Shown in pieces: positions 1-49,792 of a DNA stretch of 49,792 nucleotides; the stretch's first letter is position 1; each line of letters starts with the position of its first letter. This DNA is from Cyanophora paradoxa CCMP329 (Eukaryota; Plantae; Glaucophyta), in assembly GCA_004431415.1 (NCBI GenBank), contig QPMI01000076.1, positions 1-49,792 on the forward strand. The letters run 5' to 3'. The notes below the pieces were generated by a model that saw nothing but the letters and a program-made list of their open reading frames with translations, ran no database searches and was not told the origin of the DNA. A program made the position numbers and the translations under genes.

Positions 1-1
1 C

Positions 2-1581
2 GCCATACCGCGCACGTACCAGAGCGCGCAGAAATCGCCGCCAATCTGCTACCGCTGCCTTCGCCTATGTACGAAGCCACGCCCGTGCGAGCGCCAAGGG
101 GCCAACACGCCAGAGAAAATCGCCGCGAGGGAGGCAGCGCAGGCGAGGAAGGATGCCGTGTACGAAGAGTACGTCGCGGTCATAGAGAAGGCAAACGCGT
201 GGGCGGCCAAGCAAAACGGCAAGGGAAAGAAAAAGGGCCAGGAGCCGTACCCCCTCATCAAGGACAAGAAGCCGGCGCAGTGCCCACGGTGTCGCCCAGA
301 AACTCGTGGCTCTGCAGAAGTGCGTCACGCTGCTCGGCAACAAGGGCCTGCTCGTGATCTTGGGCTGCAGAGGCGAAAGAGGGGCGACACGGCCACCGTC
401 TCCAAGCAGACGCGCGACCACATGGTCGAGAGCGTGCTCGGCGGCCGAAGCCAAAGACCACGAAAAGGCAAAGGATACGGCCGCTGACTTCGGATCGTCC
501 GTCATCGAGCCCAACTCTGCGCAGTCGAAAATCAGAAAGGCGAAAATCGTGGCGCCGAGCATGGAAGATTTAATGGCAACCTTCGCGGACGCGCAAGAGG
601 TAAAGCAGAACATAGAGAAGGCGAAAACGGACTGCAGGCGGCGCAGGCAAACGGGCTGGAGGCGCTCGAGAAGGTGATCACGGAAATCAGCGAGACGGGG
701 CGGTCGGTCTTCATCCTCAACAAAAAGAATCCCGACGGAAGCACGCGGTACGACATACGACAGGCGCGCCAGTCGCGCTACTGGGTGCTCTTCAACACCC
801 ACAAGCGCCTGGGAGAGGCGCGGAATTCGAGGCGGCGGCGCTGCGCGACAGCCTCGCAGAGGTGCTCTCGGATGCAGAATTCTACAAGTTCATACGCTTC
901 AATATGAAGGAAGAGAACGGCAAGTACAAGGACGACACGTACGCCAACGCAATCATCGGAATTCGCGTGCAAGGGGGCGTGGAGGTGGGGCCGACGGACG
1001 GCGCGCTGCACGCCCACGTGCTGGTGACGATCGATCACATATCGAATTTGCAGGTGCTGTGGGCGAATTACGACTGGGTGGTGCTGCTGAAGGAGAAGGA
1101 GCCGAGCACCACGACGGTGTACGAGCGGCTGCACCAAATTCTGTCCGCGAAATTCACGGCGGCGGGGCAGCGCCTCGTAGACCAGAAGAGGCAGAGGCAG
1201 GGCCTCAACCGAGCATCGATACGATGGTGGAAATCGCAGAGCTCGAGCGCATGCTGACGGAAGAGAAGATAGGCATGGGAAAGATCCGCCCACCGTCCTT
1301 GCGTCGCTGATCCAGAGGAAAATTACGCGAGCAAGCTGCAGGAGTACCTCTCAAAGACGCTGCCCGACAAGCAGAGGCGCGATTTACTGAAAGAGTGGTC
1401 GCACGCGCGAAACACGAACAACACCGACAACAACACGGACGGGTACCTCTTCACGATTTTCCAGGCGGACGCCGGCCAGGCGGACGATCCCCGCTTCGCG
1501 CCGCAGGCCGCGGAAATCGGCGACCTGAGGGCCAGGGCCGAGGGCGCGGCAAAGGCAAGGGGCGCGGAAGGGAAGGGGTAG
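2..1581 (+). CDS. HUH-superfamily rolling-circle endonuclease (Rep-like), frameshifted and 5'-truncated; the N-terminal part with a CxxC-x2-C-x5-C motif may be a separate gene
   Basis: Motif I-like YWVLFNT (779-799), motif II EVGPTDGALHAHVLV (HAH at 1009-1017), motif III NYASKLQEYLSK (two YxxK, 1321-1356), stop TAG 1579-1581. The ORF-track pieces join by single-base shifts. Confidence 0.75.
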
Positions 1582-1610
1582 CGGATAATAAATCTGACGG
1601 GCCCGCGAAA

Positions 1611-1878
1611 ATGTTCCAGGGGGAATGCACCCACTCGGACATCATCACCGTCGTCTGCGGCGCGCTCTTCCTGGTCTCGGAGCTGCTGGGCGGCACGGAG
1701 CGCGTCGGCCCCAACACAGTGCTGGGCGCCCTGAAGGCGGCGGCCCTTAGGGTCGTCCGCCGCGGACAGCCCGAGCCCGAACCCCCACCGGAGCAGCAGA
1801 GGCGCGAGAGCACGCAGAACATAGGGCCGCACCACGTCGACATTCAGATGACGCAAACCGGTACCCGTTTTTTTCTAG
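1611..1878 (+). CDS. Small viral protein with hydrophobic N-terminal segment (putative membrane protein)
   Basis: AAAATG start with promoter motif; IITVVCGALFLVSELLGG segment. The stop is either TAG 1876-1878 (needs one indel in the T-run) or 1982. Confidence 0.55.
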
Positions 1879-1890
1879 AGAACATGGGAA

Positions 1891-2240
1891 ATGGAGACTC
1901 CCGCGACACCAGCCCCCAGCGCAGAGGCTCCAGCGCCCAGCAACTCCAGCAGCAGCACCGCGGCCTACCCTTGGCTTCTTAGGACTTACGCGCGAAAGAA
2001 GCAGCAGCAGCCGAAGGCACCGGCGGAAATGGCGGCTGACCTGGATCGGTGCACCCGCCGCGCCATCGCGAGCTACGCCAAGCGCGTCGAGCAGTACCAC
2101 CCCAGATGGCAGAGGACGCCCGGGCGTACGCGAAGAACCCCGCCGCGAGCCCGCCCGTGATGGCCGCCGTCATCGACCGGCTGCAGTGGGCGCTGCACGA
2201 GGAGGGAGAGCGCGTCAGGAATTTCTTCATGCCCAAGTAA
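1891..2240 (+). CDS. Hypothetical viral protein (~116 aa, one frameshift near 2100)
   Basis: Promoter motif plus AAATG; ORFs 1891-2160 and 2049-2240 join at a C-run (YHP|QMAEDARAY). Confidence 0.6.
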
Positions 2241-2262
2241 ATTTCTGAATGGGCCCTTAACA

Positions 2263-2450
2263 ATGTCGTCCATGCTCCGAGCCTCGATGATATCACCAGC
2301 GATTCCCGCTACCTGGGCAGCCTGCTGACCCTCGGCGCGGTCGCCTACATGTCGCCCGCGCGCTACTACCTCGTGCGGATCCTCGCCGCGCAGTTCGCGG
2401 GCTACTACTTCGTGGGGCCCTACCTCCTCAACGGCCTGAGGAAGGCATAA
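2263..2450 (+). CDS. Small putative membrane protein (~62 aa), missing from the ORF track
   Basis: Promoter motif plus ACAATG; MSSML(P)SLDDITSDSRYLGSLLTLGAVAYMSPARYYLVRILAAQFAGYYFVGPYLLNGLRKA* after restoring one C near 2277. Confidence 0.6.
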
Positions 2451-2473
2451 TTTCTCAGGCCCCTTCCTAAATA

Positions 2474-2922
2474 ATGTCCTGCGTCAACCTCTACGTCCAG
2501 TCGAACGGAGAGACGCAGGATTCCGAGGGCTTCTGGCGCCTCAGGCTGAACCAGATCCCCGCCGACATCGACACGCTGCAGATCAAGGGCGTCTACCTGG
2601 AGCTGGACACGACCGCGATTCCGGACCCCACCGCCGCGAAAACCGTCAACGTTCTGCTGATGGACGTGCCCGACTTGAACGTCACGACCATCTCGAACGT
2701 CAACACGTGCATCAACAAGGTCGTGATCCCGACGTGGGGCCACGACGGCCTCGAGAACACCATCCTCTACTGGTTCGAGTGCCCATGGCCGTGCGCCCGA
2801 ACTACGTCGCGTACGACAAGTTCCAGGAGCTGCGCGTGCGCTTCACCGACATCACGGGCGCCACCAAGAAGAACAACGCCTTCATCGTCAAGAACTTCGG
2901 CCTCTGGGCCTTTGCTAAATAG
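2474..2922 (+). CDS. Putative single jelly-roll minor capsid (penton-like) protein, ~150 aa
   Basis: Alternating beta pattern; N-terminal VNLYVQS...FWRLRL and C-terminal ELRVRFTDITG...FGLW resemble penton proteins of PLV/virophage/NCLDV-type viruses; frameshift at the C-run near 2785. Pattern recognition only. Confidence 0.55.
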
Positions 2923-2942
2923 ATTTTCGCATGCCCCCTTAA

Positions 2943-3419
2943 ATGCGCCTGATCATATTCCCGCGAAAGGGCTCGGGCGTCAAGACGCGCACCTTTACGG
3001 GCGTGCCTGGCTACCCCTCGCCCCTCACTTACAGAGTCGATCTTGTAACCGCCTCTGGTCCAATTAAATACGGGCTGCTGCACAGCCTCAGTCACATCCG
3101 TCTCGGCGAGAGCGCATGGCAGGACTTGGCCTTAATCGTAGAATTCGAGTACAGGGGGGTAGACACGCTAACGGGCGATCACTTTTACAGGGTGCGGGTA
3201 GCAAGGGAGGGGTACTCGCTGCCGAACGGCACGGGCGGGGAATACTGGGAGCCGAAAATACGCGATGCCTCCGAGGCCTACCGCTGGCTGCGCGACGAGC
3301 AGATCACTATCAGGCCCGATTACCCCTACGCCGACGTTTTCTGGCAGGTGCCGGTGGGCCAGTGGACAACGGGCGAGGTGAGCGGCAAGCTGAAGTGGAC
3401 GTGGGACGCGGAGCATTAG
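2943..3419 (+). CDS. Hypothetical viral protein (158 aa, beta-rich)
   Basis: Intact ORF, TAAATG start with promoter motif, complex aromatic-rich sequence. Confidence 0.7.
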   Translation: MRLIIFPRKGSGVKTRTFTGVPGYPSPLTYRVDLVTASGPIKYGLLHSLSHIRLGESAWQDLALIVEFEYRGVDTLTGDHFYRVRVAREGYSLPNGTGGEYWEPKIRDASEAYRWLRDEQITIRPDYPYADVFWQVPVGQWTTGEVSGKLKWTWDAEH

Positions 3420-3444
3420 TTAATTTTTCTCTCTCGCGGATAAA

Positions 3445-6400
3445 ATGTCGATGCTCGACGACCCCTGGCGCATGGCCATCCCGAATCCGGACGAGGTGCT
3501 GAACGGTGCCTTCGCGATAGACGGGAGCCTGAGCGTGAGGGGAATTTACGCGGATGAGATAAGGCTGCGCAAGGGCGCGACCTACAGCGATTTCCTGACG
3601 TCCGTCGGTACCTTGGACGATTACGGTGACCTCACCGCAATTATCAAGGGGCTCTGGGGCGTCACGACCGAGACGGGCGTGGACTGGAACATTATTAAGA
3701 GGGCGGCCGACGTGAAAATCGCAAACTCCGTTACAGCGAAAGACGCCACCCTGAACCTCGTGAAACTGACTCTAAAGGGCGCAGAGGGGGACGTGAGGCC
3801 CGGGTACAACGCACTCGAGCGCATCGCGGGCCCCTGCGCCACATCTACTGGAGCCGCCAGGCGCTGCCGAGCATGGAGCCCGAGCAGTACAGGCGCGACA
3901 GGGAGGAGTTTTTCGCGTGGTTCGACCACTTCAAGGTGAACATCCGCGCCCTGAGCGCCGACAGGACGGGCGAGACGCCGGAGACGACGGGCGGGGGCCG
4001 CATCCCAACGGCACCCGACGTGCTCCCCGATCGCTCAGACTGGGCGAAGACGCAGAACTGGGCGCTGAAGGACCACTTCCACGACGAGAGGTACGCCCTC
4101 GTCAAGCACCCGCATGTGAAGGCCGACATCACGGACTGGGCGCACCGCCACCTGTACGACGACATCATCGGCGGGCCCAAGGTGCCGGGCGCGATTCCGG
4201 GTGGGGGTACGGGCGGCGGAAGCACGGGAGGTGGGGGTACAGGCACCGGGGTGGGGGTACAGGCACCGGGGTGGGGTACAGGCACGGGGGGCGGAGGGGG
4301 CTCCAGTGGCACGCCCGTGGGGGGGGCGGGGGTAGCAGCGGCTCGGGTGGCGGCGGCTCGGGCGGAGAGAGCGGCGGAGGGGGTACGCTCGTGCCGATCC
4401 TTGGTACAACAACGGGAATCTTCGGCGCGGCCCTGATTGCAGGCGGTGCAAAGTACTACAGGGATCGGAAGGCGTACGAAAGGGACATTGCAGAGCTGCA
4501 GAAAGATAACAAAACGATCGTTTACTCAGACGAGCAGGTGAGAATACTGGCAGAGGAGCTGAAGACAAGGGAGCGGCAATTTAACGAAATGAGGACAGCG
4601 GCCGAGAAAAAGATAGCGGACGATTTGAAAGAGGCGAGCGATAGAATTGAGAAATCCCTGGAGGCCGAGGAGAAAGCCGAGATCCGGAAGAGAGAGGCCG
4701 ATAGGATCGTGGAAAACGCGATAAGGGAGGCAAAGGAGCAGGCAAGGACCGAGCTGGAGAAACTGGACATGGAAATAGCAAACAAGGTCAACATAGCAAA
4801 CGAGGTCGAAGAGGGCACAAAGATGCTGGACGATGAGCGAAAGGCAGCGGAGGAGCAAGCCAGAAAAGCAAAGGAGGATTTAAGGCAGCTCGAACTGCGA
4901 GAACAGGAGAGGCAGAAGGCAGAGGGGCTCGCATCCACCATACGATTCAACCTAGAGCAGCAAGTGAAAACGCTGACGGCCGAGCTGCAGAGGATAGGGA
5001 CGGCTGTGCCAAGGGGCACAATGGAGACGCAGACGACGCCAAGGCCCGATCCAAGGCCGGCCGCCGAGAGGCTGCCCTTCGCGCGGCTGGGTAGGAGCGA
5101 CCAGGTGGAAGAGCTCATTGGCCTCACGCTCGAGGATCAGAGGGCCCTCTTCGACGCGTTAGAGCAGCGGCGCAGGGCGGACGAGGAGGCAGCTGCCAAG
5201 ACAGAAGAGGAACGACTGAAGGCAATGCAAACTGCATCAGACGAGGAATTTGCACGGCTGGAGGAGCCGAAGGTAGCGGAGCGTAAGCGACGACTGGAGA
5301 CGTTCAGGGGGGCGCAGATGGATTTTTACCGCTCGGAGCTCAAAAGACTGAAAGAAGGAAATGCATCGGGGGACAGGCTCCGCGCCATGGAAGAGAACAT
5401 GCGCGACTTTAGCTACGTTATGGATCAGCTGACGGGAAGGGGTCAGAAAGACGCCGAAGAACTGAGGAGAAAGATGGCCGATGAGAAGTGGAAAAACTTT
5501 GAGCGTCAGGCTGTTCAGAGGCCCATCAGCGATGCCATCTGGATAGCATACGGCGACGCGGAGGAGATGCACCGCGAACTGCGGACGGAAGTGAGCCTAT
5601 GGCGGGGAGCCCTCGAATGGTCACTGTACCGGATGCAAAAGGGAAAGTTTGTGGCAGAGCTGCGAGCCAATCCGAAAACGACGAGCATCGGCGCACAGGA
5701 CGCGTACGTCGGCATGATCAATTACGTGGAGAAGCTGAGCAAGTTTTGGGAAAAGCGAAGAGCCGTCATTCCAGCGGAGGGGCTTGCACAGTACGACGCC
5801 ATGGTGCGCGATCTGGAGGCCTTTAAACGTGAGCATCCACCCGCCAAATACAAGCTTTACATAGATACAACGGCGTTCATAGGCGAACTAAGGAAGAGAG
5901 GAGACGAGGCCAAGAGTCAGATCGAGGAGCGCTACAGAAAGGCCCAAGCGGACAAGGAGTACGCAAACAGGGTGATCGAAGAGCGGAAGCAGCAAGCCAA
6001 GGAGAACGCGGCGAGACGCAACGCCGAGATAGAAGAGCAGAGGCGGAAGATCGCAGAGCGCAAGGCGGCAGAGGAAGAGGCAAGAAAGACCAAGGTAGAG
6101 ACAGAGTACCAAGCATTGAAACGGGAGGCCAATCAACTGTTAAAAAGGAGGGGAAGGGCCTACGCCGACGAGGGCGCGGGCGTGGGCTCGGCCAGCCCGG
6201 ACGACATCACCCTCGCGGAAAGGGACGACGTTTCCGTAGAGGAAATGCGCCCGGGCACAGCTCGCCTGCCCTCCGAGGGCGTATTCCAGACGCTCGACAG
6301 GCGCGTGATGGGCGACTCGGACGTTATTTTGCGCAACGCCCTCATGCCCTACGGCGACTGGAACCGCGCCACCGCCGACGCCCTTGCCGATTTCGACCTC

Positions 6401-8836
6401 GAGCGATTCACCACCAAAGAGCAGCGCGACGCCTTCCTGGGGCGCCGAGGGCAAGGCGGCCCGGGGTGGCCAAGGAGGCCCTCAGCGCCGAGACGCTCTT
6501 CTCGCGGCGGGTACGGCGAACAACGACGGCATGTCTTTCGGGGCAGCCGATTTATTTCAGGGGCGGGCATCGACTTGGTGGGCGCCGGGCTGGGGGTACG
6601 GGCTCGCGGGCCATGCGGCGGGCGGGCGCGGCGGCGGCGGCCTTGGACTGGCGACGGCGGGGGGTCTGCTCTCGGCCTACCAGGCGCTCTCGCAGGGCAA
6701 GATAGGGGAGGCGGAGTTCTTCGATACGTTCCGCGATCAGATGATCATGACGGTCGGCTCCTTTGGCCTGCAGACGGGCATGTCGTCCGCCCTGAGCGCC
6801 CTCACGAAAATGAGGATCGGCACGGTGGGCGGACTTGGCCTGTCCATCCTCGCGGGCGCCATCGCGCAGGTGATCGTAGATATCATCAACGGGCGCAGCG
6901 CGGAAGAGATCGTGAAGAACTTTTTCAAGTACCCCGTCGACTGGGCGGCCGACACCATCCAGTTCATTGCGCAGCTCTCGCAGCAGATCTACGACTGGGG
7001 CGTCGAGACGTGGGGCGACGAGGCGAGCCAGCTGCGCAACCGAATTAATCGGCTGGAGGGCGAGCTGGGCTCCGGATTTTTGGGCGTGTACGACCCCTCG
7101 GAGGCGCGCGAAATGGCCTCGCTCTTGGCCCAGGAGCTGCGGTTAAACGAAATAAAGGAGCCGAAGGAGCTGCAGGCCTTCATTCGCGCGCTCGACAACA
7201 GCATCAACGATTACCGTACCCCCAAGGACCAGAAGACTCTGCTCGAAATCGATCGCGCGACCGTGCTCTTCCTCTCCCAGCTCACCGTTAAAATGCAGGA
7301 GGGATTCGGGTCGACCTCGCTCGCCCTGAGTCGGCTGATGCGCGATTTAAAGCAGATGGTGAAGGAGGAGACCAAGGGGAGGAAGCGCGTATTAATTGCC
7401 GTCTACCAGGAGGGCCTCAACAGGATCAATCACATCGAAGCCCTAAGGCGCGAATTCGGCTCGGCCATCCGCCACTCGGGCGTCTCGTCCAACGGAGGGG
7501 CGCAGGTGGCCCGCCTGGCCGACGCCAACTCGCGCCTCGAAATCCCCGGTACCTTCCGCATGCAGGATTGGTGGGAGGCCGAGGCATTCAGGAACTACGG
7601 CGCCTTCATAGACAACGGGATTAATTCGCAGAGCCCCAAGGCAAACTGGCTGGTACCCAAGGCGTACGTCGATAAATTGATGGACAGGCCCGCGGCGCCG
7701 TACAGGAAAGAGGTGGCCAAGGGCGTCGAGTACTGGGCACCCTCGGCCCTGCAGCCCGTGTTTGCGGCGCAGAACTACGAGTGGCACATGGCGCCGGGGG
7801 CGAGCCAGGCGGTAAGCACCGTGGGCGTGATCGGACCACAGCTGGCGACGGTGGCGCACACAGGTGAGTACGGAGACTTAAAAGGGAAGCCGACGATACC
7901 GACGGTGCCAACCACGTGGGCGTGGGATAGCATCACGGGGAAGCCAGCGGAAGTAAACGCAGCGCAGCTCGAGTACCCCGTGGCGCAGCCCGTCAGCACC
8001 GTGGGTGTAGTACAGCCCCGCCTTGCGACGGTTGCGTACACTGGTGCCTTTGCAGATTTGAGCGGCAGGGGGCACACGCACTCGCTCTCAGAGATAAGGG
8101 ACTGGGCGGGGGCGCCCGACCTGTCAGGGTACGCCCTCTCGACCCACAACCACGAAGGCGTGTACGCGACGGCGGGGCACAATCACGAGGGGGTATACGC
8201 CCCCTTCACCCACAGCCACAGCCAGTATGCGCTCGCAACCTCCTTAGACCCCTTCACGGCGAATCACATCAACTGTCTCACCACTTTGCGCGTTGGAGAC
8301 GGATACGCATGCACGTACGACGTTCGGACGGCCTTTGAGCCAACGGGGTGGAGAGATTACGTGCACAGTGCAACGTACGCATGGGCCGCTGACAGCACGT
8401 TGACGAACTTTGAGCAGAACGTAACGTACCCCGTCTTTGCGGAGCAGTGCAAGGGCGACGCGATCTTTAGGAACGTTTACGTGAGGAGCACAGGCGATGC
8501 TCAGAAGGTGCACCGAGTCGTTTCAGCGCAAGAGTGCAACCCGAATGCATATGTTCAACACGGGAAAAAACCACGACCCGCTACCCCGCCGTGGGATGGA
8601 ACAGCTACACGGAGACAATCATCTTCGGTACCTCATACACAAGCGAGCCCACTGTAACGTTTTCGTTTCAACACGGGACAGGGGGGACAGAGGTGAAGGG
8701 ATATTTCGATTACCTTGGCCTCTCCACCTTTAGCGTCTATTACAAAGTGTACAGCGACTACGATTACACGGATCCAGGCACCGGCGGAATAAATGTGACC
8801 CTGCACTGGCAGGCCACCGGGACAATAGCCGCTTGA
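3445..8836 (+). CDS. Giant virion protein (~1,790 aa): Gly linker, hydrophobic helices, long coiled coil (tape-measure-like), phage-tail-fibre repeats, C-terminal gp53/H-type-lectin-like tip
   Basis: ORFs 3445/3873/3917/6384/8534 chain by frameshifts near 3835, 4320, 6450-6540 and 8565 with no intervening promoter motif; LATVAHTGEYGDLKGKP, WDSITGKP, HTHSLSEI and HNHEGVYA x2 repeats; tip IIFGTSYTSEPTV...LHWQATG. Confidence 0.7.
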
Positions 8837-8857
8837 TTTTTCTCAGCCCCTGTAAAA

Positions 8858-9667
8858 ATGTCCGTCGCCGTTCCTCTATTCACCTACGCGGCAAGTGTGA
8901 ACCATGTCAAGGATCACACGATTAAAGAGACGATCCTCGGCTACCAGACCACCGAAACCCCCTACAATGCCACGGCCGTCCCCTTCTCCGAGGCCGACCT
9001 CGTCCGCGTCGGCGAGCTGCGCTGCGATAAGATGCGCACGCGGGAGGGTGGGTCGGCCGTGCCGGGGCGCGTGAAGACGCAGAGGCTCACGGTCACGAAC
9101 GGGGCCTGGGACGGGAGCGGGTACACTACGAATGCTCTGACCTTTAACGGGAGTGCTGATGGAGAGGGGAACGCGGCGATGTACGTGCAGGGAGGGGGTG
9201 CAAATGTGGTTGGGGGGTTGAGAGTGAACGGAAATGTGGTCATTCAAGGCGGATACCTGTACGGCGTCCAAAAACCCTTCTTCTGTGCCGTGCTTGGGGG
9301 TGCACTGAGCACGAGTACAGGTGTAAAACTCACAAACTGGACAAACAATGCTTCGTCGACCTCGTGGAACCCCTCCACCGGTGACTTTACGTGCCCCGTC
9401 ACCGGGTATTATCGGTATACATACACAGGAATTACCGATATCTCTTCCATTCGCACATTTGTGGATCTCGTGGTGGGTTCTGCTATTGTGGCCACAGCTA
9501 CCTCAGATGCAGATCCGGATTTACCGCAATCGTACAAACCGTTGAGCATCAATACTATCGTTTACGTTCCACAAGGACAGACAGTATCTTTGCACCTGAG
9601 AAGTGGTGGCGCCTTGCATGGCGGAAACTACAGTTGCTTCACAGGAGAGCTTGTCAATCCTGCATAA
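8858..9667 (+). CDS. Fibre/spike protein with C-terminal C1q-like domain
   Basis: Shaft-like GGANVVGGLRVNGNVVIQGG followed by PFFCA...WNPSTGDFTCPVTGYYRYT...GQTVSL...SCFTGELV, the C1q/TNF-like signature. Confidence 0.8.
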   Translation: MSVAVPLFTYAASVNHVKDHTIKETILGYQTTETPYNATAVPFSEADLVRVGELRCDKMRTREGGSAVPGRVKTQRLTVTNGAWDGSGYTTNALTFNGSADGEGNAAMYVQGGGANVVGGLRVNGNVVIQGGYLYGVQKPFFCAVLGGALSTSTGVKLTNWTNNASSTSWNPSTGDFTCPVTGYYRYTYTGITDISSIRTFVDLVVGSAIVATATSDADPDLPQSYKPLSINTIVYVPQGQTVSLHLRSGGALHGGNYSCFTGELVNPA

Positions 9668-9670
9668 CAG

Positions 9671-11602
9671 TTACGTGAATCCCCATTTGTATCGAATGTA
9701 GCTAAAGATAAGGTCACGCTCCGATGATGCGAGTGGTCGATCGTAGATGAGCAGCTCGGCCATATCACCTATGTAACGAGTATTGATATCATAGCCACGG
9801 TGCCAGAATGTCATCGAGTTTGCGGTAGGGGTGGCAGAGGCGGATCGGTAAGTGCCTTGCAAATACCAAGCACTCGTGCTGCCCACCGAGTGGAAAGAAT
9901 ACAGCCACGTGTTCAGGAATGAGGTCGATGAGATAGCCGTCATGCTGGTATCGAGCTCGAGTTTGGTATCAGAGCGGTACCACAGCATTGGAGTATCAAC
10001 GGAGGAATCGTATATGTTCCTATACGCACCCCCACTTGGGCCAGTCGGTTTTGTTACCACGATGAACGTCCCACCAGAGGCGTTAAATGGCCCAACGGCA
10101 GCTGTCGGGACCAGCAGCTGGGTACCATTGAAGGAAACAACAGAGCGCCCGTTGCGAGTAAGGGTGCGAGTAGGGGCCCCGTGACCAGCCACTTGACCGA
10201 AGTGGTTGCCATTGGGGCTCTTGTCCCGCCACTGGACGACATTGGAACTCGACAGTGTAAATGTCGTTGTATCCGAAGCGTCCAGCATCAAAACCAGCCC
10301 CGATGCCACCGGCGGGGCTGAGGCGGACGTGGGAGTGATAGCCGACGAATTCGACGCCGGGCCCTCCTCACCCACAATGTTGACGGCCTTCACATAGTAT
10401 GTGTTAACCACAAAGGACGATGCAGTGGTGTCCGTGTATGGGCTCGTAACATTATGCCCAATCTCCTCTGTCCCTCTGTACACGTTGTAGGAGGTGGCCA
10501 CGCCAACTGCAGGGGGGGTCCAGGTGATGGCAACGCTGGGAGAATCCGACGAGGGTTGTGAAGTGGAGATTGAGGCCGGTGCTGCCGGATCTGTGGTGAC
10601 GTGAATGCCCACGCTCTTCAGTCCCTCTCCTGCCGAGTTCGTCGCGGAGACCTGGTACTCGTACCCCGTACCCCAGACCGTGGTGGCATCGCTGTAGGAG
10701 TTGGTCGCGGAGTCTGCGAGGTAGGCCCCGTCCCTGTAGATCTTGTACCCCGTCGCCCCCGTGGGCGCCGTCCAGCTGAGGCTAACGGGCTGCTGCTGAT
10801 CGTCGGGTGCCGTCGCCGTCAGGCTCGTGGGGGCGTTTGGTATAGTCCAGACCGGGAGCGGATCGGACTTTTCGTATTCAAACCCGCCCACGATACCGGC
10901 CACCTGGTAGGAGTACTCCGTACCCCACGTGAGGGCAGTGCTATCGTCAATGTACGAGGTAGATAGTCCGCTGCTCGCAAATCCGATGGGGGTACCGTCC
11001 CTGTAAATTCGAATCGAGTCCGCGCCCTCCATGGCCACCCAGTTGATTGTGACAACAAAGGTGGGCTTCGGGAAGCCCGCAGACGCAGGGCCGCCCCCTG
11101 CGATAAAATCGCCGTAGGTCTGGGCCGTGGCGGTCGTGAGCGCAGTGTACGCCTCGATCGTGGGCGTGGAGCCGCCTATGCCTTGGAATTGAATGTAATT
11201 GCTCCTCGCGCCCTCGTGGGTGTAGAGCAGCGACTGTGCGTACGTGGTGGGGGGCACTTTGCCGTCCGAGCCTGTGCTGCTGCTGCCCTGCTCGCGAACC
11301 GCAGCCACCCGGTAGAGTCGGAGCTCGCCGAAATTAAAGGGCGAGTTCGTGTATGTGAGCGTGGGTGCGTTCACCGTGGCCACCAGCGTCCAGGTGCCGT
11401 TGAGGCTCGGTGCCCTATACACATTGTACTTGACGGCGTCGGTGACGGCGACCCAATTCATTTGAAATCCAAAGGTACCGCCCCCATTGTTGAGCACTGA
11501 GCCCGATCGGATCTGGGGCCTGCCCACCGTGAGCGAGATCGGCTCCACGCCATACTGCGGCGCCTGCACCACCTGCTTCTTCACGAATACGAAGCGGGGC
11601 AT
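9671..11602 (-). CDS. Fibronectin type III repeat protein with C-terminal LamG/concanavalin-like domain
   Basis: About four Fn3-like units (e.g. LSWTAPTGATGYKIYRDG...YEYQVSATNSAGEG); C-terminal SGLVLMLDASD...WRDKSPNGNH...GDMAELLIYDRPL...YIRYKWG. Confidence 0.85.
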   Translation of the reverse strand: MPRFVFVKKQVVQAPQYGVEPISLTVGRPQIRSGSVLNNGGGTFGFQMNWVAVTDAVKYNVYRAPSLNGTWTLVATVNAPTLTYTNSPFNFGELRLYRVAAVREQGSSSTGSDGKVPPTTYAQSLLYTHEGARSNYIQFQGIGGSTPTIEAYTALTTATAQTYGDFIAGGGPASAGFPKPTFVVTINWVAMEGADSIRIYRDGTPIGFASSGLSTSYIDDSTALTWGTEYSYQVAGIVGGFEYEKSDPLPVWTIPNAPTSLTATAPDDQQQPVSLSWTAPTGATGYKIYRDGAYLADSATNSYSDATTVWGTGYEYQVSATNSAGEGLKSVGIHVTTDPAAPASISTSQPSSDSPSVAITWTPPAVGVATSYNVYRGTEEIGHNVTSPYTDTTASSFVVNTYYVKAVNIVGEEGPASNSSAITPTSASAPPVASGLVLMLDASDTTTFTLSSSNVVQWRDKSPNGNHFGQVAGHGAPTRTLTRNGRSVVSFNGTQLLVPTAAVGPFNASGGTFIVVTKPTGPSGGAYRNIYDSSVDTPMLWYRSDTKLELDTSMTAISSTSFLNTWLYSFHSVGSTSAWYLQGTYRSASATPTANSMTFWHRGYDINTRYIGDMAELLIYDRPLASSERDLIFSYIRYKWGFT

Positions 11603-11641
11603 GTTCCTCTACGATCCGAAAAAATATCTGCGCCGGGGTAA
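11603..11641. promoter_or_regulatory. Bidirectional viral promoter (39 bp) with two back-to-back copies of the element-wide motif
   Basis: Plus strand AAAAAATATCT-N12-ATG (11642); minus strand TTTTTTCG-N14-ATG (11602); both use the same A/T run. Confidence 0.7.
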
Positions 11642-12322
11642 ATGACTTCCAACTGGTACCAGACCCTCAGCGGCTCACTTGACGTTGGCAACAACACCAA
11701 GGATTTCGCGCGCATCCCCTCCGGCAGTTACGTCGACGTCTTTCTGCAAAATCCCGTCGTGATTCAGGTCGTTCAGAACGCCTACGCCACGCCCAAGATT
11801 TACTCCTATCAGCTCTTCTTCGACCCTTTGAGCCTCAGCGCAGAGGTCATCGAGCTGCTGCACGAATCCGGCCTCGTGAAAAAGGTGGCGCCGGCGACAG
11901 CCACGGCCAACGTCCTGCGCTGTTTGGAAGTTAAGTTCAGGGAGACGGGGTACGGCCCCACCGTGAACCAGTACACCAGTACCGACCTGCCGGGGACGGG
12001 TGCGTATACGGCGCGGGGTACGCTCAAGGGCGACGTGCTCTTCACAAAATTCAATCCGAGTCCCGCCACCCTGGGGGCCCTCTACACGGGCGGCAACCCG
12101 CGCGCTTCCGGGTTACCCCGCTTTCCCTTCACCTTTTTCAAGTTTCAGGTCTTCCCCCTCTCCTACGCCGCCGACCAGCCCCACTTCAGCACGGGCGCGA
12201 GCCTCTGCGCGGAGCTGCGCGAGTGCTCGATTTCCTACAGGCACACCACTGGCTCCGACGCCGTGCAGCCCGCGGCCCGCATCTCGGGCATCGGCAACGA
12301 CATCGCCCTCTTCTACGGATAA
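11642..12322 (+). CDS. Hypothetical viral protein, paralog A of tandem pair
   Basis: Intact 226-aa ORF with promoter motif; several blocks align with the next gene. Confidence 0.75.
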   Translation: MTSNWYQTLSGSLDVGNNTKDFARIPSGSYVDVFLQNPVVIQVVQNAYATPKIYSYQLFFDPLSLSAEVIELLHESGLVKKVAPATATANVLRCLEVKFRETGYGPTVNQYTSTDLPGTGAYTARGTLKGDVLFTKFNPSPATLGALYTGGNPRASGLPRFPFTFFKFQVFPLSYAADQPHFSTGASLCAELRECSISYRHTTGSDAVQPAARISGIGNDIALFYG

Positions 12323-12345
12323 TCTTTCTCATTCGAGATCGCAAA

Positions 12346-13122
12346 ATGCCGACCACCTCGGCCACCATCGTGAAGACTGTGCTGCCTACCCCCGATTTCT
12401 ACGGCGACACCGCAGCGGCCAACGCTGGGACGGATTCCGTGGTCTGGGACGGCAATTACGCCTCCATGCTGACCGTGAAAATCCAGAATCCCGTCATGCT
12501 GCGCGTCACCTCCAACGATTTCGAGAATCCCGCCTCCTGCTCCGTGTACGTGTACTTTGACATCGACTCGGGCGTGAGCGCGGACGAGGCGGAGGCCCTC
12601 TGGCTCTCGGGCCTGTTAAAAAAGATAGAGCCCTCCGTGCCAGATCGGCCGCGATTCGCGTGCTCGAGCTCAAGTTCACTGCAACACCGCCCTCACCCGC
12701 ACTTCAACGGCGGCACCAAGACCCACATAGACGGCGCCCCATCAGCAGCGCACACAAGACAACCAGGCCGTCCCCTTTGAGATGTACAACCTCTGGAAGA
12801 TGACCGCAAAGGAGATGATGACGAATGCCACCACGGGCGGAGTCTCGGGTACCTCGTTTTCCTACGATTCCTCGAATCCCCGTACCCAGGTCTGGCCCCG
12901 GCTCCTCTTCACGAAATTCACTTTCAAATTGTACAACAACATTGCGGGTATGCCTACCTCTGGAATGGTCGTGGGTCTACCCTCATGGCCGAGCTGATCG
13001 AGGCGGAGGCTGACTACACGACTGCCACCACCAACCCTGCCAACGGCACCGCTACGAACTACGTGGCCTGGAGCACGATTGACCGCGAGTACGACACTAA
13101 GATCCACACCACTAGCGTCTAG
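12346..13122 (+). CDS. Hypothetical viral protein, paralog B of tandem pair (frameshifted)
   Basis: AAAATG start at 12346 with motif; VKIQNPVML, SGLLKKIEP, NPRTQVWPRLLFTKF match paralog A; stop probably TAG 13120-13122. Confidence 0.65.
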
Positions 13123-13477
13123 ACTGGCTAAGCTGCACTAGCGCCTGTGCCGCCTCCATCATCTCCCGAATCTCCTCGCTCTTCTCCTGTAAGTTGGCGT
13201 ACCCCCTCCTCTTCTTGCGAATCTCCGACATCGATGCCCAGCGCAGGTTCTCCCTCCTGTAGTCCAGCGGGTTGCCGTTGATGTGTTCCACGTAGCGTCC
13301 ACGCGGCGACTTCCCGAGGATCAGCTGGGAGAGGTAGTGCTTGCGCCCTCCGAACGTCTTGCTCACCCTGTCCCTGTCCACTCTCCAGGGAAACTCCAAG
13401 GCACTCGGGGGTACGTCCGAGTTGACCAGGACGTTGTAGGCGACGTCTTGCGAGTCGGTGCACCGGAGCAGGGCCAT
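13112..13477 (-). CDS. HNH endonuclease-like protein (HNH_3 type), possibly inactive
   Basis: YVEHINGNPLDYRRENLRWASMSEI against the family pattern VDHINGxxLDNRRENLRxxTxSEN; promoter motif upstream. Confidence 0.8.
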   Translation of the reverse strand: MALLRCTDSQDVAYNVLVNSDVPPSALEFPWRVDRDRVSKTFGGRKHYLSQLILGKSPRGRYVEHINGNPLDYRRENLRWASMSEIRKKRRGYANLQEKSEEIREMMEAAQALVQLSQSRR

Positions 13478-13498
13478 TTTGCTCTAGGTTCGGAAAAA

Positions 13499-13620
13499 CC
13501 TGGGACTTGGGACTTGGGACTTGGGACTTGGGACTTGGGACTTGGGACTTGGGACTTGGGAAGAGTTGAAACCCAGGTCCCGGCCCAGACTTTCTCCAGG
13601 ATCAGAAATTTGTCAGACAA
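13499..13620 (+). repeat. Telomere-like array 1: (TGGGACT)x8 + TGGG followed by conserved flank AAGAGTT...CCAGACTTTCTC...GGATC
   Basis: Array read directly at 13501-13560; the flank is an imperfect inverted copy of 13935-13990. Confidence 0.95.
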
Positions 13621-13934
13621 GTCAGGTGAGTTTTTCTACCGACTTTTTTACTCCTACCACCCCTCGTACTCTTTTTTACTCGTAGTCTTTTTTACTCGTA
13701 TCCCATCTCGTACCCTCCTTCTCTCGACATCTCGCACGAATACTCCTACCCCTCTTCACATCCTTTTTCGGTTGCATACTCTCGTGAGCTTTCATGTCCA
13801 GTTTCATGCTACAAGTCGTACACCAGTTCAGACTCTACCTCGCTTGAAATCTCACCTGGAATGTCACCAGAAACGTCGTATCCAGAATTCCGTACCCCTT
13901 TCTAAGTCTGCCCGGTGGTTAGGGACTTGGTGCA

Positions 13935-14027
13935 GCAAACTCTCAGATCCAGAGAAAGTCTGGCCCAGACCCTGAGTCTAACTCTTCCCAAGTCCCAAGT
14001 CCCAAGTCCCAAGTCCCAAGTCCCAGG
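13935..14027 (-). repeat. Telomere-like array 2: conserved flank + CCCA(AGTCCCA)x5, inverted relative to array 1
   Basis: Array at 13987-14025; flank GAGAAAGTCTGGCCCAGACCCTGAGTCTAACTCTT. Confidence 0.95.
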
Positions 14028-14108
14028 ATCGCGCCAAGTCGTAACTGAATAGTCGGACAATTTTTACAAGTATGTACAGTGGAATGACGCAATACTATTT
14101 ACAGCATC

Positions 14109-15215
14109 TCAAATCAGAGTCATCATCGGAAACCAAGTCAATCGGTGCATCGGGCGCGGACTTAAGGGAATGCGGGGAAGGGCCTGCGCTGCCTGCACTA
14201 AGTCCTGCCGCTCCTGCTCGCGCTGCGCCGCCAAGGCCGCTGCCGCCTCTGCCTCGCGCCGCTGCTGAGCCTCGACGCGCGCCCTAAGTTCCGCTGCCTC
14301 CTTCTTCTTGCGCTCGGCAATCTTGGCCAGCGTCATCTCGCGACGAAGAAGGCGCTCGTGACGCAACTTGCGCCGGAGTTCGGCCATTTCGCGCTTGGCG
14401 ATGATGCGCTTCTCAATGGTCTTGACGTGCTGAGTCAGGCGCTCGGTGTAGTGTGACGTCACGCGAGAACGGGCAATGCCAGCGCCGATCTTCAAGTCTT
14501 TTTCGTGTTCCTTGGCGGGATTCTTGACTCGCTCGGAGTTGTCGGTGAATGACGTGGTCTCCATGAACTTCTTCTTGACGATTGACTTGGTCTTGATAAT
14601 GCGGCGCTTGCGAGTCGGGTTTTCGTTGTCGCCTTCAGAGTCAGAAGACGACTCAGAGTCGTATGGAATCGGCACGTCAAAGTCGATGAAGTCGTTGATG
14701 TCAGACTCGGCGTCAGAGGCCTCGGACGTGGCGTCATCGGCGGGCTGAGGGGCGGGCTCGGCGACGGGCTGAGGGGCAGATGACGACGATGACGGAGGGG
14801 GTAATTCGTGAAGACTTGCGGGGGTAGGCCCAGGCGAGCGTTTCGGCGGCAGACTCGGCGAAAAGCTTGGGGTCGCCCCAGCCAGTGGGAGTCTTGACCC
14901 AGCCGGGGACGGGGGCACGTCGAGGGCTTGGAGGGGGGCCTTGGTGTTGCGCCAGTACGTGCGGTCCACTCCAGTCGGAATAAGGCAGCTGCAAAAAATG
15001 GAGAAATCAGCCAAAGTCGAGAGGGAAAATCAGAGGGCTCACCGGGGGCCATCGGCCAGGCCTTGTAGCAGGGTGAAGTTGGCGCCTTCTTCTTCTTCGA
15101 GGGGTGTACGAATCTCCCTCGACGACGGCCTCGACGGTTTCGTGAAGGGTACGAGGTAGAGCTCGCCTTCGTACGTCTCGTACTTGTACCGGAGCAGCTG
15201 AGCGCGCCGTTGCAT
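14109..15215 (-). CDS. Spliced gene in the viral terminal region: Pro/Ser-rich, acidic, NLS-like and coiled-coil segments (putative nuclear regulator)
   Basis: Exon 1 15215-15043 (MQRRAQLLRYKYETYEGELYLVPF...DGPR); 54-nt intron 15042-14989 (GTGAGC...GCTGAT...TTTTTTGCAG) containing an in-frame TGA; exon 2 continues in the frame of ORF 14109-15014. Confidence 0.65.
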
Positions 15216-15632
15216 GTCGGGGTAGGCTGTTGTCCGGACTTGTGCAGATTGCGGGCGCGACGAGGTCTATGTCGAGGGCGGGGATAAGGCTGGCATCTGC
15301 GCCAAAGGGAAAATCGTCAGGCAAAGGCAAAACGTGAGGTGACTGTGAGGGCGGACTTGCACGGATTCGGAGAGGCAGAGTTTGCTTGGGCTGAGAGAGG
15401 CGGCGAACCCGTTTCAAGAGTGAGCCAAAATGGCGGCGGACCGCGGTTTTGTGGGTGATTTTTTTCGCGGTCTAGTTCGCAACGGAAAACGTTGCCAACT
15501 GGCCTGAAAAAAGCCAAATTTAGCGTTGGGCCGAAGGCAGAAAAAGGAGCCGGCCTGACGGAAATCGCCCGAGTGCGTCCGCCGAAGGTCGAGTCTCGGA
15601 TGGGGGTACACCCTCAGGGGCCCCCTGGTCCC

Positions 15633-16103
15633 TCACCCTGGTAGTACCCTCTCAAAGGGATTTTCGAAGCCGTACAATTCTTGGTAAGTCTCGTAGTCCG
15701 GGCTGTACCCCCTCACAATCTGCGGGAGCCCCATTGAAAGCCTCCGTCTGTCCTCTCTCAATTCCCTGCGGAAAAGACTGCGGTCGCTTCGAGCTTCGCG
15801 CGTCACGCCAGCTGGGCGTGGTCTATGATTGTTAGGGTTGTCGTAGCCTGGCCCCACCAGCCTCACGAAATTTTCGCGTACGGCCTCGGGGAGACTCTGG
15901 AAACGGCTCGTCGCGTGGAACTCAATCCATTCATTGAATCGACGCGGATATTGACGGATGACTTCAAGCACGCCCTGTGTGTTGGGCTCTGGTGTTATGT
16001 CGGGAATGTCATGTCCTGTGAGGTGCCAACGCCAGAACTCGCGCAGCCTTTCGAATGCCATCTGCAACTCAAAGGGGAAATCGTAATAGAGATTGCCTGA
16101 CAT
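15633..16103 (-). CDS. Hypothetical viral protein (156 aa)
   Basis: Intact ORF with ATTTTCG-N13-ATG promoter motif directly inside array 3. Confidence 0.7.
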   Translation of the reverse strand: MSGNLYYDFPFELQMAFERLREFWRWHLTGHDIPDITPEPNTQGVLEVIRQYPRRFNEWIEFHATSRFQSLPEAVRENFVRLVGPGYDNPNNHRPRPAGVTREARSDRSLFRRELREDRRRLSMGLPQIVRGYSPDYETYQELYGFENPFERVLPG

Positions 16104-16134
16104 TTTTCTCCCCGTCCGAAAATTTCCCCGCTTT

Positions 16135-16216
16135 TGGTCCAGACTCTGATTTTAACTCTTCCCAAGTCCCAAGTCCCAAGTCCCAAGTCCCAAGTCCCAA
16201 GTCCCAAGTCCCAAGT
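16135..16216 (-). repeat. Telomere-like array 3: conserved flank + CCCA(AGTCCCA)x7; direct repeat of array 2 and inverted to array 1
   Basis: Array at 16161-16216; flank TGGTCCAGACTCTGATTTTAACTCTT matches the array 2 flank TGGCCCAGACCCTGAGTCTAACTCTT at 22/26. Confidence 0.95.
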
Positions 16217-16757
16217 TTTCGATCGATTTCACGCGTGAAAACGGCACTTTTCGGCCTTTTCCGATTTTTCCTTTCTCGAGATCGCATTAATGCCCTCGAT
16301 CTCGAAATCGCGATCGAAAATGGTCGCGATCGTGAGAAAGTCGCGATCACCAGGGTCGCGATCGGCTCGTGATCGCCGCGATCGCCAGCCTCGGAGGGGG
16401 TACCCCACAGCTGTTGCGGCGGTTATAAGAACCTCCGCAATCCAAGCGTCACTTCCGAGTCTCGAGCTCTCGGAGTTGACTTTTCGCGTTTGGCCCATTG
16501 ATGGCCCTCGTATATACATGTGCGTGTCTGTATACACGCATATATTTGTACATATGCATGTACAGGTCTTAAAGCGGTCATCGGGCTCTAGATCACGCGA
16601 TCGCCGAGTCGCCCGACACCGAACTGCAATTGCCAAGTTCAAAAATGCGCAGCCGCCGCGGCCTATAGCTACATATATATATACGTACATGCATATGTAC
16701 ATGTAAGCGTGGGGCTAAAGGCTCCCAGCCGCAGGCATATCGAAGACAAAGGCGTCG

Positions 16758-19290
16758 ATGGCAGTGGATGTCAATGGAGGTGCCGCGGAATTCGAAGATG
16801 CAGCGATCCGGGGAGCTCTTTCGTCTCGGGTTGCGCTGTGGGTCGGGACGCTCCTCTCGAAGCACAGCCATGGCCAGGAGGGCGAGGCTCGGAAGTTGAT
16901 TCTTGCCCACCCCGACCTCAAGGCCGTCGGATGCAACATGTGGCTCGAGATGGTGCACCCCGCACGGGGAACGGGATGCTTAATGATGAATCTTATATAT
17001 ATGATAATCCCTCATCGCGTGCTGCAGTATGCCAACGCTCAACAATTCCCAATCACGGACGACACTACGCTCCGTTCCGAGGCGCGCGCCCGCATTCTGT
17101 GCAATCAATCAATTTCTCTCTGCTGATGACGTCAACGAGTAGGAGCTCGAGGCATCCAAAGTCTGGCACGATGATATGATCGAGACGGTACGTATACAAG
17201 ATTGATCGATCGTTTGATCGCCCCGTGATCGACTCGACTTTGACGTACGGGGCCGCCGGGCGCGGCATGCACAGCGGGAGCGGATGAAGGAGACGTCGGC
17301 TGCAGTGGAGGCGGCTCGGGAGGGCGTCGCAGCGGCCCTGGGCGAGGGGCGGGCCGACGAGCTCATCGAGATGCTCCACAGGCGGGAGGACGCTCTGGAC
17401 CTCATTGGCGCCCGGTGCGACGTCCACCTGTGCACGCGCGGACGTCGACGCGCTCCGATGTTCACGAATCGTACCTCATGCTCTGATAATAAGGTCCACT
17501 GCGCTGGATCGCCCCTACCGCGGCTACGGCTGCTCGTCCGCAGAGGCCACTTGGATCGAATCGGGTACGCCAGCGAACTGGCTCGAAAACGAAGTAACCC
17601 CCGTGCCACCGGCGGCCTCTGCCTTCAGCCTTGAGCGTTCCCGCAGCGCGTCCCGGAGGCGATGGGAGACCTTGAGAACGTCACTCGTGAGGTGCATTTA
17701 ATTTGCTCTCAAAATTAGATCTCGACCTATGCGCCTCTCAATTCGAGCACGTCTTCGGCCGCAGGAAGTGCAGGCTCTCGATCTTTCCGTGAAATTTCGG
17801 GCCCTCGAGGCAGACTTGTCTGCGGAGGGAGCCTCGGCCGCACTCTGCTGCGGAGACGTCGACGCCGCTCTGGCCGACCGCCTCCTGTCGCACTACCGCG
17901 CCACACTCGCCTCTGCCGGCGCCGAAGTAGTCTCGGGGGATTCGGTTCGCGTCGACGCGGCCCGCTTGGCCCTCGCCCCCATCGTCTCTTCCTGCGAGGC
18001 GGCCCGGCCTGATACGGTCCGCGAACTCGAGTCCCCGGCCCTAGGCCTTCTCCCCGTGCCTCGCCTTCCCCTCTGACAAGGCGCCTGGCGAGCGCAGACC
18101 CTTTGGATCACAGAGGAGAGCAGGGAGGACGAGCCGACCGCCGTAATTGCCCCCGGGGACCTCGGTGCTGTTCGGGCGGCCCTCGAGGGCTTGGCCCGTG
18201 GCGCGTGGGCGCCGGAGCAGTGCGCTGCCCGCCTCGCACAGCTGCGCGAGGAGTTGATTATCCCACGAAATCCACCTCTGAGCGACGAGGTACACTGCGG
18301 CACGGCCACCCCGGGCAATACCCATGTGCTCATAAGTACTTTGTTTCGCGAATCCTACACGTGACAGTACGTCGACGCTGCCAAAGACGACCTTCTTGCC
18401 GCCATGGAGGAGGTGCAGAAATCAAATTCGGAACAGCTCTAGCGGTCGATCGCGACATATATATCGGAGTTAAAAGCTTAAGGCAGCCCGGGACGGTTTC
18501 CAACAGCAGTTAACGTTGTTTCGCAGCGGTCCGAAGCGCGGGGACTCTTGGAGGGCGCAGTGGCATCTCGCGCGGAGCTTGATGCTGCGACGGATGGGGC
18601 CGCTTCAAAAATCCTCGAAGCACTCGCAGAACACGACGAAGTGCTCGCGCATCTGGCCATACGGTGTGCAGTTGTTCAAAGCCCTTGCCCAGCTTGCTGG
18701 GAAATGTGACATTTGAATCATACGCTTATAAACATTTTTAATGCAGAATTGCCGTGACGGACCCCGAGGTCCTTCGCTTCGCCTGCGCCTTGTTCGAGCC
18801 TGCGGCGGTGCGCATACGCTCTGGAATCCCGATCGATATATGTTCCCGCGGCATCTTTTACCGGTCAAAATCGACACGAGCTCAAGCGGGTATGCGTTCG
18901 CAGGACCCTGCGGAGCGCGGAGCACAGTCCATTGTCGTGAGCGACGAAGTGCTCAATGTGTGCAGGCCTCCCTCCCTCCCTTCGAATTCGCCCCGCCCCC
19001 TTCATACTGCGCGATGTCGACATATTTGACGCGGGTTCTGCAGGCGCACGGTCTCCTTGCGTCTCTGGATCTGGCAGCATCGTCGAGCAACCAAGGGAAT
19101 GGAGATCTAGACTCGGAGCCAGCGCATCGACTGCCGTGCGGGTTGCTTGAGAGGACAAGCGACTTTCTATTGATGCAAAACGTCGTGGTGCGGCGCAAGT
19201 TAATTGGCCTATAGCTATTCCCTTTCGGCGGCCGCCGGGCAGCCAACGCGGGAATGACACCGATGGGGACAGGTGGAGCCCCTTGAAGCT
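16758..19290 (+). CDS. Host multi-exon gene, alpha-helical protein of unknown function (3' end uncertain)
   Basis: Chain of short exons bounded by GT/GC...AG (MAVDVNGG...MWLEM | YANAQQFP... | ELEASKVW... | RERMKETS... | EVQALDLS... | RSEARGLL... | DPAERGAQ...). Confidence 0.55.
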
Positions 19291-47326: not shown

Positions 47327-47357
<31 letters not shown>

Positions 47358-49676: not shown

Positions 49677-49792
49677 TAGCGGCGCCTACCCGGCGAAAGA
49701 GCCCGGAGCATCGACGAGTCAACGATGGCGACCGACGATGGGCCCCTGCTCAGAGAGCTGAACGCGCGGCCCGGCCGACTACGCAGGCCAGG

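Follow-up and report, generated by a model that had tools for sequence, protein, structure and literature searches.

Three perfect heptamer arrays near the right end of a multi-copy virus-like element of Cyanophora paradoxa form a candidate replication origin

Contig QPMI01000076.1 of the glaucophyte Cyanophora paradoxa CCMP329 (assembly GCA_004431415.1), whose 49,792 nucleotides are referred to here as the window, begins with the right part of an endogenous virus-like element that carries a gene for a mriyavirus-type HUH endonuclease. Close to the right end of this element lie three perfect tandem arrays of the heptamer TGGGACT, numbered 1 to 3 from left to right. The arrays are a real, element-linked cis feature, and they are neither telomeric nor an integration end. 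As to their function, we infer, at somewhat less than an even chance, that they are iteron-type protein-binding sites and that the inverted arrays 1 and 2 make up a predicted rolling-circle or hairpin origin for the HUH proteins.

Results

Three perfect arrays share an invariant flank

Exact counting gave eight TGGGACT units in array 1 (13501-13556, plus strand), five in array 2 (minus strand, module 13980-14027) and seven in array 3 (minus strand, module 16154-16216). Each run of heptamers is directly followed by an invariant 11-mer, TGGGAAGAGTT. In the 49.8-kb window, GGGAAGAGTT or its complement occurs exactly three times, and the last ten bases of TGGGAAGAGTT are not found elsewhere beyond the three arrays. 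Tandem Repeats Finder (TRF) returned copy numbers of 8.7, 5.7 and 8.1 for arrays 1, 2 and 3, all at 100% match. Exact counts and TRF thus bear out the numbers of units and the invariant flank given in a preliminary description of this DNA, which had been made from the letters alone. Repeat alignment likewise agrees with the geometry proposed there: array 1 is inverted relative to array 3 (67 nt, 99%) and to array 2 (64 nt, 88% ungapped; 85-nt arms at 88% with gaps), and arrays 2 and 3 are direct repeats of each other (65 nt, 94%). A further conserved flank had also been described; it extends over approximately 40 nt of inner flank in arrays 1 and 2, but only approximately 19 nt of it are shared with array 3.

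When bases 1-16400 were simulated 300 times with a first-order Markov model, no perfect primitive 7-mer repeated at least three times appeared. All three arrays are real and lie beyond chance expectation. The module pattern had no match in the viral contig collection. Between the inverted arms of arrays 1 and 2 lies a non-coding spacer of 0.34 kb, the plus strand of which is pyrimidine-rich (T 106, C 98, A 58 and G 48 in 13621-13930). Folding of 13568-13979 gave a z of -1.7, and Rfam showed no match in the spacer at E<=1.

The arrays belong to a multi-copy element with a fixed gene order

The window copy is part of a multi-copy endogenous virus-like element of C. paradoxa with a fixed gene order. 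Homologs of the 226-aa open reading frame (ORF) at 11642, the first of two paralogs with predicted oligonucleotide/oligosaccharide-binding (OB)-like folds, form 11 clusters, and every named member is a C. paradoxa gene model. The gene enclosed by arrays 2 and 3, called the cassette gene here, falls into 28 clusters (55 member sequences), whose 28 representatives all bear the same gene-model naming, and approximately 56 loci result once neighbours are collapsed. These locus counts hold among the accessions listed, with six of the 28 cassette clusters and six of the 11 OB clusters expanded (the other five OB clusters are singletons), with some gene numbers interpolated and the window's own locus excluded, and the numbering is blind to orientation. 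The cassette gene lies within five gene numbers of OB-like genes at 43 of 48 loci, and three members of unexpanded cassette clusters could account for some of the five misses. At 11 of 12 loci with the HNH gene, which abuts array 1, the cassette gene is directly next in numbering. This linkage makes the 'terminal cassette' a stable part of the element.

One further copy of a module could be read back from gene model P0039, in which OB paralog 2 is spliced to the array 2 module. Array 2 of that copy has seven units instead of five, in the same orientation, with its own inner flank and an outer flank as in the window. In this one other copy, unit number therefore varies while place and orientation are kept. 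P0039 was the only one of 76 proteins scanned that contained the repeat.

Both sets of data bear on a suggestion of the preliminary description, namely that recombination at the modules inverts a segment of 0.5 kb or 2.7 kb, or excises the 2.2-kb cassette. Nested repeats in both orientations, inverted and direct, would permit such events, and the cassette protein occurs in several unrelated-looking N-terminal variants joined to a conserved, acidic, coiled-coil C-terminal part. Routine excision, however, is contradicted by the loci just counted, which keep the gene between arrays 2 and 3, and inversion finds no support in the P0039 copy, which retains array 2's own inner flank in the same orientation. 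A Pfam scan of 1-16500 found no recombinase. We regard recombination sites as a decidedly improbable explanation.

It is scarcely credible that the module is a host minisatellite, or the end of a miniature inverted-repeat transposable element (MITE), that inserted into the element without any role for the virus. No TGGGACT array occurs in the host part of the window, a second copy of the element has array 2 at its place, the gene between arrays 2 and 3 belongs to the stable gene set of the element, and no target duplication could be seen by eye around the array 1-2 or 1-3 units. Within the window and the gene-model data, the module is linked to the element, as first described, and does not behave as a host repeat scattered independently of viral genes. 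An independent MITE with arrays 1 and 3 as its ends was discarded, since the gene it would enclose remains linked to viral genes.

The element ends beyond array 3

Contigs from four DNA runs were placed on 16230-19800, and depth figures were taken from the two runs that were read whole. Contig depth is in the thousands up to the bin ending at 16589 and 35-41 further right. Among the loose contig ends listed, those behind 16516, 16519 and 16526 continue into differing host flanks, each after CTCG-TATATA, and single-copy contigs span 16490-19800. The depth drop and the divergent flanks place the right end of the element at approximately 16510-16519, about 300 bp past array 3; the arrays are therefore near the viral end, as had been proposed, but not at it. 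The 5-mer composition is virus-like to approximately 16400. Terminal depth is approximately 30-50x the single-copy level, a figure that fits the gene count, although depth cannot be equated with copy number. The terminal segment folds with a z of -3.98, and Rfam gave only one chance-level match in it (E 0.56).

These junctions speak against arrays that mimic host telomeres and drive integration at chromosome ends, which had been suggested by analogy to human herpesvirus 6 (HHV-6) and Marek's disease virus. The unit is G-rich with a GGG core and the arrays are close to the element end, as such a role would have it. Yet the element runs on for 300 bp past array 3, the junction flanks listed are TA-rich, non-telomeric and interstitial, and 33 kb of host DNA to the right contain no TTAGGG array. 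C. paradoxa is itself listed with TTAGGG, a database candidate that has been confirmed by telomeric repeat amplification protocol (TRAP) for Glaucocystis (PMC3622300), and the array unit is a different 7-mer. Telomere mimicry is contradicted at the right end, and we hold it to be very improbable.

The same region provides an argument for another role. An 8-kb single-copy contig recovered in two runs (X3 record 23, X4 record 30) contains only 16456-16516 of the element, with 6 differences. In run X4 the solo piece is preceded by TATATA and reads TATATA-CGAG ... CTCG-TATATA, with inverted 10-mers on both sides. Judging from its sequence, this 61-base piece could be a deletion product or a footprint of an element whose left end mirrors the right. 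Such a locus would be expected if the left end begins with the inverse of the right, that is, if array 3 were an integrase-bound subterminal repeat of a terminal inverted repeat (TIR) and arrays 1 and 2 were internal copies or remnants of ends. Both the site of array 3, 300 bp short of a sharp end, and the TATATA in every flank listed fit this, and 156 TIR-bounded polinton-like viruses (PLVs) are tabulated for glaucophytes, 85 of them in the PF00665 integrase column as the row was read (PMC12220804, Table S6). However, the left end and any integrase lie outside the window, and a terminal depth of 30-50x against approximately 56 loci, as far as depth can stand for copies, is nearer to one copy per element than to two. 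The perfection of the internal arrays 1 and 2 would also be left unexplained. We consider an integrase-bound terminal repeat quite unlikely.

The element encodes mriyavirus-type HUH proteins

HUH motifs I-III were read in the frames 488-907, 616-1257 and 1273-1581, the gene being frameshifted in the window copy. A profile of 12 mriyavirus-type HUH proteins matches 616-1254 with an E-value of 9.6e-21; a HUH with these three motifs is a trait of the Mriyaviricetes. The viral context and the HUH protein of the preliminary description are borne out. BLAST of the window HUH to the short and long HUH proteins of IMG/VR loci gave E-values of ~1e-7. A homolog search of 1.84 billion representatives returned 22 matches, among them three Logan proteins (611-724 aa) and a group of short HUH proteins; one long and one short HUH protein among these matches are both on contigs of 4,240 bases. 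With a profile of the short HUH proteins, 13 IMG/VR loci (L001-L013) were found, most of which have a short HUH gene and then a 1,600-2,100-aa protein ending in a HUH domain. We call these loci gamadvirus-like from the short-plus-long HUH layout only, and each covers at most 20 kb of its contig. The adjacent short and long HUH characteristic of the Gamadviridae is also present in Cyanophora: in gene models P0082, P0083 and P0120 a second HUH motif lies upstream, joined to the long gene, and the short gene falls outside the window.

In a tree of 40 HUH domains (one tree, midpoint root, matches below 90 residues left out), the three 611-724-aa proteins and the Cyanophora long HUH form one group (99/97), which is separate from the IMG/VR clades of long (100/100) and short (99/97) proteins and hence not inside the gamadvirus clade. 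Further traits of the Mriyaviricetes are a double jelly-roll capsid protein like that of nucleocytoplasmic large DNA viruses (NCLDVs), a packaging ATPase, VLTF2, VLTF3, RuvC and Mriya_48/50/51. Profiles of the unannotated gene clusters common to L001-L013, which are partial loci, had no match in 1-16600 of the incomplete element. The long HUH alignment retrieved no related loci in viral or metagenome contigs, and the HUH profile gave no match to the PDB by sequence. By these comparisons, the element would represent an apparently undescribed lineage of mriyavirus-type HUH elements apart from the gamadvirus-like contigs. The domain content of its fibre-like, C1q and fibronectin-III (Fn3) genes suggests virion functions; since a capsid gene is absent from the window, that the element is a virus is itself inferred.

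A predicted origin at the inverted arrays

Twenty perfect units and an identical 11-mer in three modules whose adjoining flanks have drifted point to a constrained protein-binding unit. As at iteron-type rolling-circle origins, a cognate HUH initiator is encoded in the same replicon. Iterons next to a nick site were among the roles suggested in the preliminary description, and iteron-type sites are still the reading we prefer. In the model we favour, the HUH protein would bind the heptamer runs; the 85-nt inverted arms flanking the pyrimidine-rich spacer would extrude, or would fold when single-stranded; HUH would nick within or beside the invariant 11-mer; and the two neighbouring OB-like proteins would cover the strand that is displaced. 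A third site, near the end, would be provided by array 3. Geminivirus iterons also regulate genes, and arrays 1 and 3 may do the same for the genes whose starts they abut. Gamadvirus-like locus L011 contains perfect 18-, 33-, 30- and 19-bp tandem arrays at 18614-19652, between two divergent ORFs, a region that is a candidate origin by its layout.

Several observations weigh against a replication origin. Comparable non-coding arrays were found in only this one of the 13 gamadvirus-like loci (within the at most 20 kb covered of each contig); no nick-site motif was identified at the arrays, although inverted arms are present; and the HUH genes are more than 11 kb away. The module in another copy is known from one gene model and for array 2 only, arrays 1 and 3 being taken from the window copy alone. 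The modelled OB folds are weak calls (Z of at most 5.0), below the level that separates kin from common folds. Finally, arrays 1 and 3 stand at gene starts, which a purely transcriptional role would fit equally well.

Such a role, in which a host factor or the neighbouring HNH-like protein binds the arrays as operators or enhancers of the terminal genes, strikes us as rather unlikely. The HNH start is 21 nt from array 1 and the 156-aa ORF begins 50 nt past array 3, and both starts show a T-tract ... AAAATG context. The HNH_3-like protein is almost invariant among copies, with 90 invariant columns among eight sequences, and has Tyr at the position where the family usually has the catalytic Asn; with this substitution it may bind DNA without cutting. 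Array 2, on the other hand, is situated downstream of a gene, with non-coding DNA between it and array 1, which it faces, the approximately 40 nt of extra inverted similarity exceed what an enhancer needs, and array orientation is opposite relative to the two gene starts. Origin, operator and integrase-binding subterminal-repeat roles can coexist.

The start context just mentioned recurs in the element. Among 13 hand-picked ORF starts in 2263-16103, nine have a TTTC tract approximately 13-20 nt before an A-rich ATG, a count made without a chance control; this combination is likely a shared viral promoter. A bacterial promoter scan gave no match.

Two OB-like paralogs lie next to the arrays

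The paralogs encoded to the left of the HNH gene are 27-30% identical in alignment. The model of paralog 1 (predicted local distance difference test, pLDDT, 41) had its best Z, 4.7, to single-stranded DNA-binding proteins (SSBs), with T7 gp2.5 (1je5) at Z 4.4 (root-mean-square deviation, rmsd, 4.0; 110 aligned). For paralog 2 (pLDDT 51), the top VIA match was the Cdc13 DNA-binding domain (Z 5.0, rmsd 4.0, 118 aligned), T7 gp2.5 (1je5) reached Z 4.2, and POT1 and CST scored lower than Cdc13. Foldseek found no match at E<=0.001 for either paralog in viral or PDB libraries. Atlas had no usable match for paralog 1; for paralog 2 its best value was 0.88, with a Bbp16-like lead scoring 0.84. Neither the 226-aa protein nor the OB alignment retrieved related loci in viral contigs, and the OB alignment retrieved none in metagenome contigs. 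The OB profile matched none of three virus records and had no match to the PDB by sequence. A capsid jelly-roll identity of both paralogs, which was the first guess, was provisionally set aside because both low-confidence models matched OB folds best.

The Cdc13 match raises the possibility that the G-rich strand is a telomere-like single-stranded substrate of the two OB-like proteins, which would cap or protect replication intermediates. Arrays 1, 2 and 3 hold 9, 6 and 8 GGG tracts with 4-nt loops, and both paralogs model as OB-like. However, a Z of 5.0 to the telomeric DNA-binding domain is within the common-fold range and less than 1 from that of T7 gp2.5, the pLDDT values are low, the Atlas lead points elsewhere, and a generic SSB is already described for gamadviruses (PMC11253617). 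Such a substrate is, in our judgement, improbable. Similarly, we give little chance to a bolder proposal that would combine it with nicking, namely an integrating mriyavirus-related lineage in glaucophytes with its own telomere-like system, in which HUH nicks the arrays and the OB pair binds the displaced G-rich strand sequence-specifically, like Cdc13 or POT1.

Other features of the window

The features of the element are listed in Table 1. The ORF at 6531-8654 has a weak PHROG tail-fibre match (E 9.4e-4). The 156-aa ORF has no Pfam or PHROG match, and its exact sequence is absent from the protein collection searched. Many viral ORFs in 1-13122 are frameshifted relative to intact homologs, for which decay and assembly indels are both conceivable.

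To the right of the element, 21100-21350 contains a degenerate stretch that, read by eye, is like the C-terminus of a DIRS-type tyrosine recombinase. A MITE-like element with 53-nt inverted ends (91%) and first bases CACTAG occupies 21969-22322. Host genes rich in introns lie at 25500-34400 (minus strand), where the region resembles an ABC-G transporter by eye, and at 39200-49792 (plus strand).

Table 1. Features of the right part of the element, in window coordinates
Feature	Position	Strand	Basis and remarks
Long HUH endonuclease gene	1..1581	+	CxxC pairs resembling a zinc finger precede HUH motifs I-III; 5' end not within the window; several frames
Small ORFs, followed by long ORFs of coiled-coil and fibre-like type that have His-rich repeats; likely virion proteins	1611..8657	+	ORF list
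C1q-domain protein	8858..9667	+	Pfam PF00386, E 4.4e-8
Fibronectin-III repeat protein	9671..11602	-	Pfam PF00041, E 9.6e-7
226-aa protein, paralog 1, predicted OB-fold-like (low confidence)	11642..12322	+	11 homolog clusters, models
266-270-aa protein, paralog 2, frameshifted in the window, predicted OB-fold-like (low confidence)	12346..13122	+	Intact homologs P0031, P0034
HNH_3-family protein	13112..13477	-	Pfam PF13392, E 1.9e-7; 21 nt between start codon and array 1, on its outer side
Array 1: 8 heptamers, invariant 11-mer, inner flank	13499..13606	+	Repeat finding, exact count
Non-coding spacer between inverted arms	13607..13942		Base composition; no strand
Array 2: 5 heptamers, invariant 11-mer, inner flank; faces array 1	13943..14027	-	Repeat finding, exact count
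Cassette gene, ~350 aa, GT-AG intron-like segment at ~14977-15030	14109..15300	-	28 homolog clusters
156-aa ORF	15633..16103	-	ORF list; start codon 50 nt inside the 11-mer of array 3
Array 3: 7 heptamers, invariant 11-mer, short inner flank; same orientation as array 2, opposite to array 1	16135..16216	-	Repeat finding
Multi-copy terminal segment, short palindromes abundant, last bases CTCG	16217..16510		Depth, fold, 5-mers; no strand
Right junction: CTCG, TATATA, then copy-specific host DNA	16507..16519		Loose contig ends; no strand

Discussion

The arrays offer a candidate origin for a virus group for which no origin is described in the literature searched. Mriyaviruses are the proposed closest small relatives of giant viruses, and the rolling-circle proposal made for them draws on the HUH gene alone, in the text available. 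A HUH pair, candidate SSBs and a defined candidate cis site, present in dozens of copies in a culturable alga, make binding and nicking directly testable. With this element, the HUH lineage also reaches into glaucophytes, in the form of integrated elements that have a TATATA junction. Surprise is lessened by the endogenous viruses already known from C. paradoxa and by arrays near viral ends being common. Polisuvirus genome maps mark small repeat arrays (bioRxiv 10.64898/2026.10.13.758929).

The PLV-type endogenous viruses recorded for the same host comprise 366 capsid genes in two clusters of 272 and 94 (PMC10120064), and the 156 TIR-bounded elements cited above come from glaucophytes (PMC12220804). 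The element family may be among these, although neither main text, as far as available, mentions HUH. The main text of the C. paradoxa genome paper, in its available part, does not contain 'virus', 'viral' or 'telomer' (PMC6704402). In the literature, subscription papers and preprint supplements aside, we came across no account of the arrays, and none of an HUH element in Cyanophora.

The closest counterpart is the family Gamadviridae of the Mriyaviricetes. Gamadviruses have an adjacent short HUH and a long HUH with a C-terminal HUH domain, for which rolling-circle replication has been proposed, and a T7 gp2.5-like SSB, PEV_26 (PMC11253617). The element resembles them in its mriyavirus-type HUH, in the adjacent short and long HUH and possibly in a T7-like SSB, but the long HUH proteins fall into separate clades and no other common gene was found in 1-16600. 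Mriyaviruses are reported without integration genes (bioRxiv 10.64898/2026.06.19.733378, available text), whereas the element is integrated at approximately 56 loci with a sharp end. The available text on gamadviruses describes no origin or arrays (PMC11253617).

The Zoravirus (VC102) and VC218 mriyavirus-like PLVs are likewise similar in having a HUH endonuclease; they are small repeat-bounded eukaryotic DNA viruses, often with an integrase, and HUH and integrase co-occur in them (bioRxiv 10.64898/2026.06.19.733378). The window, by comparison, holds the right part of the element only, and capsid, ATPase, Mriya48 and integrase are not visible there. Cyanophora, glaucophytes, telomeres and tandem repeats go unmentioned in the available main text of the Zoravirus and VC218 study (bioRxiv 10.64898/2026.06.19.733378).

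With respect to their arrays, two further kinds of system can be compared. HHV-6 and Marek's disease virus have telomeric arrays that match the host telomere, and they integrate into the host telomere. G-rich tandem arrays near a viral end are common to them and the element, but a match to the host telomere and telomeric integration were not found here at the right end. Rolling-circle origins with iterons include the adeno-associated virus (AAV) inverted terminal repeat (ITR) and the geminivirus intergenic region. From iteron origins of this kind the element differs in its three long arrays (5-8 units), its 0.4-kb loop, its distant initiator gene and the lack of an identified nick motif. It nevertheless shares with rolling-circle origins the combination of short perfect tandem repeats, a stem-capable inverted arrangement and a cognate HUH initiator, as at the pMV158 origin, where tandem 7- and 11-bp repeats lie beside the nick hairpin (PMC10288648).

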